A stretch of DNA of 63,987 bases, counting the filler, from Collodictyon triciliatum (taxonomy: Eukaryota), in the NCBI GenBank assembly GCA_043381765.1. It is 7 parts of 7 records of this genome, joined end to end, with 100 filler letters (N's around TTAATTAATTAA, not from the genome) between each part and the next. Parts side by side here need not be neighbours in the genome. Positions count along the whole stretch, not along the records: positions 1 to 9,264 come from JBHJMP010000802.1; 6 more parts are not named here. One strand, 5' to 3'. The translations under genes and the position numbers were made by a program. The notes under the pieces were generated by a model, which saw only the letters and a list, made by a program, of their open reading frames with translations, was not told the DNA's origin and made no database searches. How positions within the stretch are numbered: the first letter of the stretch is position 1; every line of letters begins with the position of its first letter. Below are positions 7,526-9,120 of this stretch, piece by piece.

Positions 7526-7566
7526 TACTATGGTCGTGTAATAATAAACGCTGCCAGGAAAGACCT
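7431..7566 (-). ncRNA. Candidate Fanzor omegaRNA scaffold
   Basis: Overlaps the Fanzor 3' end. Outer stem 7558-7566/7483-7491 (9 bp, 2 G-U), inner stem 7539-7548/7521-7530 (10 bp, 1 G-U), and a second hairpin 7473-7479/7431-7437 (7 bp Watson-Crick). The G-U pairs form only on the Fanzor sense strand. Confidence 0.55.
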
Positions 7567-9120
7567 AACAGTCTGTTTTTTAGATGAAAATGCATGCATA
7601 TTTTGAAGGATAAAAAGAACTTTCTTGAATGTATTATTAGTGCTGTTAAAGTCCCTTGTCAAGAATACAGTTTGTTTGCTTTCGAAGTGATTGCATTCTT
7701 TGCATATGAGACTTATAATATATACTTTTTTTGGATTTCCTTTCGGCGTCATTTATTCCAGTTCTTTTTCGCAGTTACAGCACATCTTGGAGGTTCAATA
7801 TTCATTTACACCAACACTGTTTCAAAATGTTTGGATAGTATTTTTTGTAATCCTCTTCCGATTGTTGGCATAAAATGCTTCATCGGACATTTTCTGCTCC
7901 AGTCTCCACACGCCAGTACAACATCCTCGCCAAATGTCTTTTCGATGCTGTCCATAGACAACTGTTCACTTTTTGTATTAACATGCTGTCTCCATACCAT
8001 CTTTCGAAAAGTTACTTCATAAAATCTGGAAAGTTCTGTCTGGTATCTTGATTTCATAGATACACATTTTCGAAATTTATCGTAATCGACCGCGCATGAA
8101 TTATGTTTACTCAGTTATATCTCTAAATCGATTAAAGACACTCTTGATGTCTCAAACTGCTGATTCTCTTCAAAAGTCATGAGAACAAAAGAAACTGCAC
8201 TTTGTAAATTTGTTGTCGTGCATATCCCTGGATAAGTGTACTTTTTTTTCTTTCTAGTGCATGAGTATTTTGTGATTTTTAAGAGATTTGATATCATGTC
8301 TTTGATGTGCCGTGTAACGTAATTTCTTGCCTGTCTCATCCACCATGTAAACCAAATTAAACTTGCCTGCGTCCACTCCAACTGTTATTTTTTTGTCGCT
8401 AATAAAGATAACTGCTCTTTGGAAAATTCATCCATAAAGGTATTCTTGGAGTTTTTGATTCTATTTGGATTTTGAATTTGAAATACCTTTTTTTTTTCAA
8501 ACAATAATGACACCGCCAAGGCGTCTGTTTGTATCATGTATTTAAAACTGTAGTCTCTTTGATGAAAGACCGTTTTCTTCATTTCAAAGAACTTATCCCA
8601 TAGTGTCTCTTTGCATCCTGATATATCCTTCTTTAATGATGTTTTTCCAGTTAATACTAATAAACCTATGAAACATGCATTATCCAGAGTAATATGACAT
8701 GGTATATTGGTAGTTCTTATAGAGATTGCTTGAAAAAGTTTGGTTCCAAAGCCCCAAAAAATGCGATTCATGTAAATCAGACATGGAGTGTACTTATTTG
8801 GATTGACTTTGGCGTCATATTTGATACCTTTTACAACATCGCTGGGAATGATATGATGCAAATGCGTTGTAGCCCACTCTTTATATTGTTCCGGTATTTC
8901 GAGATTCTTGAAGATGGCTTTTTTTTTTAACTTCGTAACTATCCTTTTTAACAGCTTCCGTAATATTCTCATCTTTAGGAACTGTTTTATTTATGAAGCG
9001 CAGTAACCTCTTTACAATTTGTCCTTAATGTTATTATGATAAGCTGCTGACATTTGCTTCGCCAAGTACGGTAATACATGAGACAGCCTAACCGACGGAA
9101 CGCATTCTTCTCGAGATAAA
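7528..9120 (-). pseudogene. Fanzor1: Decayed Fanzor1 (eukaryotic TnpB-like RNA-guided endonuclease), 5'-truncated by the contig end
   Basis: Joining frames gives LPYLAKQMSAAYHNNIK..LLRFINKT..YMIQTDALAVSLLF..ITVGVDAGKFNLVYMVDETGKKLRYTAHQR (RuvC-I D, 8371-8373)..VVLACGDWSRKCPMKHFMPTIGRGLQKIL..VNEY*TSKMCCNC (E, 7801-7803)..LICKEC..VFLTRDFNS (RuvC-III D, 7651-7653). It carries several frameshifts and in-frame stops. Confidence 0.9.

Follow-up and report, generated by a model that had tools for sequence, protein, structure and literature searches.

The subject of this analysis is the minus strand of positions 7528–9236 in a stretch of 63,987 nucleotides (nt) of DNA from Collodictyon triciliatum (GenBank assembly GCA_043381765.1), the whole of which is referred to in the following as the window. 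When the window was searched in its full length with P0002, an intact metagenomic protein of 648 amino acids (aa), homology was found from 7528 to 9236 (tblastn, E = 3e-127), and all other matches of P0002 in the remainder of the 64 kb have E values of 2.9 or worse, which puts the similarity at 7528–9236 far beyond chance. In a frameshift-aware alignment the copy represents residues 76–642 of P0002 and agrees with it at 316 of 558 aligned positions, and the reading-frame pieces, taken from stop to stop, sit in two alternating minus-strand frames. The interval is very probably a dead gene copy of Fanzor1, a group of RNA-guided nucleases within the Fanzors, which in eukaryotes correspond to TnpB and Cas12; the copy would belong to the subfamily DUF8286, whose members are mostly found in giant viruses (Nucleocytoviricota). 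The features of the copy, from its whole extent to its single motifs and its two ends, are the following:

7528..9236, minus strand: very probable Fanzor1 pseudogene, corresponding to residues ~76–642 of the 648-aa relative (tblastn, frameshift-aware alignment and invariant columns)
8383..9236, minus strand: N-terminal (REC/WED-like) part 5′ of RuvC-I, which aligns to P0002 residues 76–363
9051–9083, minus strand: SHVLPYLAKQM within the N-terminal part
8790–8819, minus strand: YDAKVNPNKY within the N-terminal part
8365–8382, minus strand: RuvC-I VGVDAG, with the Asp codon GAC at 8371–8373, which aligns to D383 of SpuFz1 (Fanzor1 of Spizellomyces punctatus)
7896–7907, minus strand: GDWS, with Gly at the canonical position of the RuvC-II Glu
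7795..7806, minus strand: NEY (7798–7806) and then a TGA stop; the codon of the relocated RuvC-II Glu is 7801–7803 and aligns to SpuFz1 E541
7693..7782, minus strand: C4 zinc finger, CCNC at 7771–7782 and CKEC at 7693–7704, split by a TAA stop at 7753–7755
7651–7659, minus strand: RuvC-III TRD, with the Asp codon at 7651–7653, which aligns to SpuFz1 D606
7495..7530, minus strand: 3′ end of the copy, with the natural stop TAG at 7528–7530, then TAAT, then a run of 29 A (7495–7523)
9235..9364: 5′ end, with a run of 30 T (minus strand, 9235–9264) abutting the spacer N44-TTAATTAATTAA-N44 (9265–9364)

The motifs on which an earlier note on this DNA had relied (VGVDAG, GDWS, NEY with TSKxCCNC, CKEC, and TRD) were all found on the minus strand where that note had placed them, and the codons of the three catalytic residues, D, E, and D, are all retained. 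Six residues separate the relocated Glu (7801–7803) from the first Cys of the zinc finger in the copy, and TSKMCCNC follows directly after the TGA at 7795–7797, the whole stretch from NEY through the stop to TSKMCCNC occupying 7771–7806 of the minus strand. As to the extent of the gene, which had been given as 7528–9120, the 3′ limit holds but the 5′ limit was set too short, since homology reaches 9236, that is ~115 bases more. Likewise, the frames are broken, as had been said, but the damage was understated by the words "several broken frames": the alignment to P0002 counts seven frame changes (near 9184, 9147, 9022, 8937, 8386, 8259, and 7816) and four in-frame stops (TAA at 9160–9162, TAA at 8115–8117, TGA at 7795–7797, and TAA at 7753–7755).

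The lesions extend to the residues themselves. The copy covers 79 family-invariant columns, 69 of which are kept and 10 lost, among the latter P365A and G314A. The DPG of RuvC-I, invariant in the family, reads DAG in the copy: the Asp is kept and the Pro is changed. For a working Fanzor1 an open reading frame (ORF) is required, which the copy with its 11 lesions does not have, and so are element ends together with a right-end guide RNA (omegaRNA), which it does not have either. Because of the 11 disabling lesions and because there is no right end as source of a guide RNA, the copy must be considered inert; judged from its sequence it is dead and cannot act as an RNA-guided nuclease. Programmed frameshifts or an altered genetic code were also considered and were rejected, the stops being of two kinds (TAA and TGA) and invariant residues having been lost.

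Relationship to Fanzor1 and to giant-virus proteins

The relatives of the copy were found by searching 5.8 billion proteins with the copy translated in one frame, with stops written as X. Among 7566 candidates there were 19 protein matches, with E values from 5e-102 to 3.9e-32, all of which are tagged PF26935, the family named DUF8286 (Pfam 38.1; Atlas). A family profile built from 17 intact relatives (alignment A1) was then searched against all chains in the PDB, and the chains found were those of PpFz1 from Parasitella parasitica (9cf0; E = 3.3e-63), SpuFz1 (8gkh; E = 1.1e-61), and GtFz1 from Guillardia theta (9cer; E = 3.5e-46), all of them Fanzor1 proteins. Chains of Fanzor2, TnpB, or Cas12 were not among the matches with E values up to 1; the sole other row was a designed fibre protein (0.55). 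With SpuFz1 the alignment extends over nearly the whole length (profile positions 3–598 on chain positions 398–1027), and at the level of sequence profile positions 3–452 align to the N-terminal parts of both SpuFz1 and PpFz1; a REC2 kinked-helix pair is a published hallmark of Fanzor1. The assignment to Fanzor1 is made because of this full-length homology to Fanzor1 structures, including the ~360 residues before RuvC-I, and the claim of a Fanzor1 remnant in broken frames, with which the earlier note had begun, has thus been borne out by profile matches with E values from 3e-63 to 3.5e-46.

The same search answers for the active site. That note would have given up its reading if no profile matched or if the D-E-D residues did not align to the catalytic positions; a profile match was found, and D364, E555, and D604, which are invariant in the 17 relatives (P0002 numbering), align to positions 777, 935, and 1000 of the 8gkh chain, which after subtraction of the fusion-tag offset of 394 are D383, E541, and D606 of SpuFz1. 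These three residues are described as coordinating two magnesium ions (PMC10432273). Invariant across the 17 relatives is also D364-P365-G366 as a whole. In P0002, ~363 residues precede RuvC-I, and the motif spacings run from D364 to T558 and from C590 to R603. The original Fanzor motif of Bao and Jurka, D-X(125,275)-[TS][TS]-X-X-C4 zinc finger-X(5,50)-RD as given in PMC3627910, is fitted by the copy, which has TSKM-CCNC...CKEC...TRD.

It should be noted, however, that not all of these traits are specific. The earlier note had taken a Gly at the canonical RuvC-II position, a Glu moved beside the zinc finger, and a long N-terminus together as the layout of Fanzor1. The traits are present, and the long N-terminus is part of the homology that marks Fanzor1 here, but the moved Glu is common to Fanzor2 and some TnpBs. 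The replacement of the canonical RuvC-II residue by Gly or Pro, together with a Glu beside the zinc finger, is ascribed to all Fanzors and a subset of TnpB (PMC10530073), and the DPG motif with a Glu that has moved to "six residues from the zinc finger" to both Fanzor1 and Fanzor2 (10.1101/2023.08.09.552727). Since it is common to Fanzor2 and TnpB2, the moved Glu is necessary but unspecific for Fanzor1.

Most relatives are viral. In IMG/VR a scan gave 385 pattern matches. Relatives are encoded by 356 of these, and many lie on contigs of up to 289 kb labelled as giant-virus bins. From the 356 loci 80 were kept (L001–L080), all with an intact ORF of 575–637 aa and with 38–47% identity to P0002; the giant-virus relatives are 35–39% identical to the read-through of the copy over ~520 residues. 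In the Atlas the look-alike clusters are 92–100% Viruses, with Nucleocytoviricota commonest. A scan of metagenomes with P0002 gave a single distant locus (L081, 21% identity), and the contigs of P0002 and P0022 were not among the results.

A tree was calculated from 33 rows: one for the read-through of the copy with X at the breaks, 17 for database proteins, and 15 for the viral ORFs that remained of the 80 when those at least 85% identical had been removed. P0001, P0009, P0017, and P0021–P0024 were left out because they were fragments or duplicates. The copy groups with P0002 in a clade with a Shimodaira–Hasegawa-like approximate likelihood ratio (SH-aLRT) of 100, which is joined by a branch of 0.96 to the other 31 rows, including all 15 from viral contigs. 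The tree has no outgroup and the direction of a transfer can therefore not be read from it. The terminal branch of the copy is 1.16 long as compared to 0.31 for P0002, a difference as expected if the copy has been decaying neutrally.

That sibling copies may exist had also been proposed, and this is supported by diverged copies in other sequencing runs. Two sequencing runs, X5 and X8, contain 259 and 290 short contigs, respectively, similar to the copy: in X5 18 show a likeness of 99% or more, 58 of 95–99%, 103 of 90–95%, and 80 of under 90%, and in X8 the numbers are 15, 69, 116, and 90. Contigs of 85–100% likeness cover positions 7524–9236, with up to 17 contigs per site, and the depth at 7400–7523 is zero. 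The contigs show that the family has multiple, diverged copies and that the sequence common to them ends at the A run, which gives no copy number. A search for shorter proteins added four ORF fragments, 73–82% identical over 10–15% of the query. Near 7816, 9022, and 9147 (rows 7814, 9021, and 9143) a share of the sibling contigs has a length difference that offsets the shift in the window, and near 8386 and 8937 the length differences listed do not; among the rows of insertions and deletions listed there is none for 9184 or 8259, and 49 further rows stand outside this list. Because sibling contigs offset some of the frame shifts of the window, some of the breaks are private to this copy. Of 13 sequencing runs listed as sharing words with the window, none exceeds a share of 0.12, and none is an RNA run.

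Several points weigh against this reading of the copy. The C-terminal piece of the copy gives a weak match to PF07282 (Cas12f1-like_TNB; E = 0.004, 17.7 bits versus a cut-off of 26.3), and P0002 has no Pfam match in the version searched, which lacks PF26935. The Pfam evidence being weak, the Fanzor1 call rests on the profile search of the PDB and not on a curated family model. As the tree has no rows of Fanzor2 or TnpB, it is from the PDB comparison that we infer membership of the Fanzor1 clade. Within the 64-kb window neither tblastn nor a search of the window found a second copy or a flank repeat. The truncation at the 5′ end may be a limit of the assembly rather than biology, because the T30 run is the end of the contig. 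The sibling contigs come from a comparison of four sequencing runs with positions 7400–9236, in which X5 and X8, runs of one study whose kind (RNA) is a guess, stand for two organisms of no established relation to that of the window, so that they give no count of copies in its genome.

An intact Fanzor1 is described in PMC10432273 as binding a guide RNA from the right end of its element and cutting matching double-stranded DNA beside a short motif via a split RuvC domain. By analogy, the intact ancestor of the copy would have been an RNA-guided DNA endonuclease borne by a mobile element. An omegaRNA transcribed off the right end of the element would have guided the split RuvC center, formed by the Asp, the relocated Glu, and the second Asp beside the C4 zinc finger, and matching DNA would have been cut next to a short target-adjacent motif. 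Once inserted in ordinary host DNA, the copy may have decayed neutrally. The activity of the ancestral element, the neutral decay after insertion, and the cutting mechanism are what we infer, the mechanism being taken from the published work on SpuFz1 and other Fanzors. The role of Fanzors in the life cycle of their elements in eukaryotes is itself described as still open (PMC10432273).

Element ends and possible origins

The relatives in giant viruses have recognizable ends. The conservation of DNA among the viral loci ceases ~75–110 nt past the ORF. In L023 and L060, inverted ends of 32 nt, 100% and 97% complementary, respectively, bound elements of 2361 and 2395 bp; in a third locus examined beside them, L009, no pair of inverted ends was found. 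A right-end tip ...A[AG]GGTGTA is present in 72 of the 80 loci, mostly 73–82 nt past the end of the ORF. When each sequence is folded alone, a small hairpin is seen just before TT[TG]AAATG, its 3′ arm being formed by the inner portion of the inverted end, and the arms differ among loci yet keep their pairing. RNAalifold found no consensus structure for 14 right ends, the reason being that the alignment was not in structural register. The right-end hairpin is no more than a lead, a candidate for the terminal stem of the guide RNA.

Some further observations were made on these loci. The right-end tip (…TTTAAATGTNCAAAGGTGTA) with its inverted left-end copy is conserved over the elements L001–L080, the proteins of which are only ~40% identical to P0002. 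Many loci share ~430 nt of conserved DNA 5′ of the viral Fanzor1 ORF. In L009 the minus strand of 3231–4847 encodes a 538-aa protein with about six repeats of a Cys-rich unit of ~75 aa (…HGDxYDYSKVEY…CxxHG…C…C…), and this protein abuts the Fanzor1 ORF where other loci carry the left end of the element.

The copy in the window ends differently. Beyond the A29 run (7495–7523) the sequence is unrelated. The terminal motif of the relatives has no match in the window at up to three mismatches, Rfam gave no family at threshold (one microRNA match of 21 bits versus 69 was taken as chance), and the last 179 nt at the 3′ side fold no better than shuffled sequences (z = −1.27). At the 5′ side the T30 run falls where relatives carry Phe-Phe-Leu codons, for which reason the run may have grown in place. 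Since the window consists of contigs strung together, adjacency across its spacers is not established; there are six of these spacers N44-TTAATTAATTAA-N44, with stops in all six frames, at 9265–9364, 19580–19679, 26588–26687, 33652–33751, 53466–53565, and 60619–60718. Every contig or gap edge in the window sits in a homopolymer or microsatellite.

How the copy came to its place can be answered only in terms of likelihood. Tentatively, we put first a compact DNA transposon with inverted ends, such as those of the giant-virus relatives, of which the right end, and perhaps the left end, was later lost to deletion or to the growth of microsatellites. The relatives are just such elements of 2.36–2.40 kb, with the 32-nt inverted ends of L023 (100%) and L060 (97%) and the terminal motif in 72 of 80 loci; homopolymer and microsatellite runs abound in the window, with all contig ends in one, and a T run at the Phe-Phe-Leu codons could have grown in place. 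On the other hand, there is no trace of the end motif in the window, and the sibling contigs of X5 and X8 likewise reach no further than the A run, the depth at 7400–7523 being zero. For this reason either the whole family would have lost its right end, or the right end of the family would be very short.

A retrocopy, for which a messenger RNA (mRNA) of Fanzor1 would have been reverse-transcribed and inserted by machinery of the type of long interspersed nuclear elements (LINEs), is the less likely route, and we give it a modest chance. It would account for the A29 tail just past the stop, for the missing element ends, and for the missing 5′ part. TAG, TAAT, and A29 indeed come straight after the ORF, no right end was found by motif, Rfam, or fold tests, and the family signal ends at the A run. 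Moreover, clade 1c of Fanzor1 is reported to be preferentially associated with LINEs, among others (PMC10530073). However, 5′-truncated retrocopies predict a depth that rises toward the 3′ end, and the summed contig depth, admittedly a poor measure, is flat over 7710–9135 and drops toward that end. The 5′ boundary is a contig end, where truncation and target-site duplication cannot be read, and homopolymer runs are common throughout the window and not only behind the copy. A wider scenario built on the same poly-A end, in which the copy and P0002 stand for a lineage that is sister to the giant-virus DUF8286 clade, resides in eukaryotes, and multiplied in a freshwater, protist-like host as poly-A-ended copies without inverted ends or guide-RNA region, appears rather improbable at present. 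If it were true, a Fanzor1 gene would have spread via reverse transcription of its mRNA, not via DNA transposition, after an exchange between giant virus and host.

That the copy is the relic of an integrated fragment of a giant-virus genome and not of a mobile element resident in the host is very improbable. It would agree with the 356 of 385 IMG/VR pattern matches that encode relatives, many in giant-virus bins, with the Atlas clusters of 92–100% Viruses in which Nucleocytoviricota are commonest, and with the precedent of virus-integrated Fanzor1 elements described for a brown alga (PMC3627910). But the scaffold showed no other gene of viral appearance, the neighbours being exons for HslU, TPR, and PROPPIN proteins, the composition of the copy equals that of the host, the copy and P0002 have a clade of their own (SH-aLRT 100), which a branch of 0.96 sets off from each of the 15 rows from viral contigs, and X5 and X8 contain the family in multiple, diverged copies.

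Hardly credible, finally, is a gene that is intact in the organism and only appears broken through homopolymer sequencing errors or a non-standard genetic code: several frame changes do lie in or beside A runs (e.g., near 8386 and 8937) and the assembly is fragmented, but four in-frame stops of two kinds (TAA, TGA) are no homopolymer errors, ten invariant residues are replaced, the host exons of the window read normally with the standard code, and contigs of the lake/freshwater metagenome runs X1 (8203–8436) and X2 (8275–8425), which span the breaks at 8259 and 8386, have no difference to the window, an identity that is not independent proof of the breaks because X1 and X2 are possibly of the same source as the window.

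Surroundings, significance, and known systems

The dead Fanzor1 copy lies in what looks like ordinary host DNA. The window is AT-rich, with a content of guanine plus cytosine (GC) of ~35%, and eukaryote-like, with host genes split by introns; the GC fraction of the copy is 0.346 as compared to 0.352 for the window. Exons for TPR and PROPPIN proteins are present in the window, and ~6.5 kb from the copy, on the same scaffold, there is one for an HslU-type ATPase. Eukaryotic HslU is known from protists and algae rather than from animals, and the exon thus hints at a host of the former kind. No TnpA-like gene was found near the copy. Directly downstream of the copy is an ORF of 236 aa with a hydrophobic stretch and without a Pfam match, which in the Atlas resembles DXD-type glycosyltransferases no more than weakly (scores of at most 0.84) and which is probably an exon of the host. 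Throughout the window there is an unusually heavy load of long homopolymers and of microsatellites with short units, for example (TGTA)n, (GAAAAA)n, and A or T runs of at least 30. The corresponding features are:

392–1087, minus strand: HslU-type ATPase exon (TIGR00390, E = 8.6e-30, versus 1.3e-13 for ClpX)
6649–7356, minus strand: ORF of 236 aa, probably a host exon
3055–3417, 4187–4655, 10864–11955, and 58016–58782: examples of the homopolymer and microsatellite tracts

Fanzor1 is known from protists, fungi, arthropods, plants, and giant viruses, and the copy is a new, dead member of a well-known kind of gene. That viral and cellular Fanzors are intermingled in trees was noted already in 2013 (PMC3627910). 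The name "DUF8286" was not found in a literature search, which does not mean that the subfamily is new, as it may go under other names or be listed in the supplements of the 2023 surveys. Of mild interest are the poly-A end and what may be a cell-resident sister clade to the large giant-virus DUF8286 group. Fanzors are under development as compact genome editors, for which intact members are useful and a dead copy is not. The value of the copy is that of a marker, since it shows that a Fanzor1 subfamily known otherwise largely from the genomes of giant viruses has several diverged copies in a cellular host too. Such a residence fits the published idea that large viruses ferry Fanzor elements among eukaryotes, and the poly-A end and the missing element ends raise the small question of how the family has spread in this host.

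How does the copy compare with systems that have been studied? With Fanzor2 and the TnpB proteins of IS200/IS605 and IS607 the family shares the backbone D...[TS][TS]xx-C4 zinc finger...RD (PMC3627910), and with Fanzor2 and "TnpB2" the relocated RuvC-II Glu and the DPG motif, as described in PMC10530073 and 10.1101/2023.08.09.552727. These proteins differ in that they are shorter before RuvC-I, for example with D324 in ApmFNuc (PMC10530073). SpuFz1 and PpFz1 have the motifs of the family profile: D-P-x in RuvC-I, G-D-W-S where the RuvC-II Glu formerly stood, E-x6-C ahead of the zinc finger, and R-D in RuvC-III. The position of the RuvC-I Asp is comparable, being D364 in P0002 and D383 in SpuFz1; in ISDra2 TnpB it is D191. 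The match to SpuFz1 and PpFz1 is nevertheless a distant one at the profile level, and unlike them the copy is broken and without ends or a guide-RNA region.

The giant-virus PF26935/DUF8286 elements have the same invariant motifs as the copy and differ from it in their 32-nt inverted ends, in their conserved right end with the hairpin, and in their separate place in the tree. In architecture they resemble the published Spu-1 element (PMC10432273): common to both are a single ORF, a length within ~2.1–2.4 kb, inverted ends of ~30 nt, and ~80 nt from the stop to the right end. The element of the Spodoptera frugiperda ascovirus SfAV is likewise described as non-autonomous, with only a Fanzor1 of ~600 aa between short inverted ends, and in Fanzor1 of this insect-virus type the stem-loop of the guide RNA includes the inverted end (10.1101/2023.08.09.552727). 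Compared by description only, these insect-virus elements are like the giant-virus relatives of the copy in their layout.

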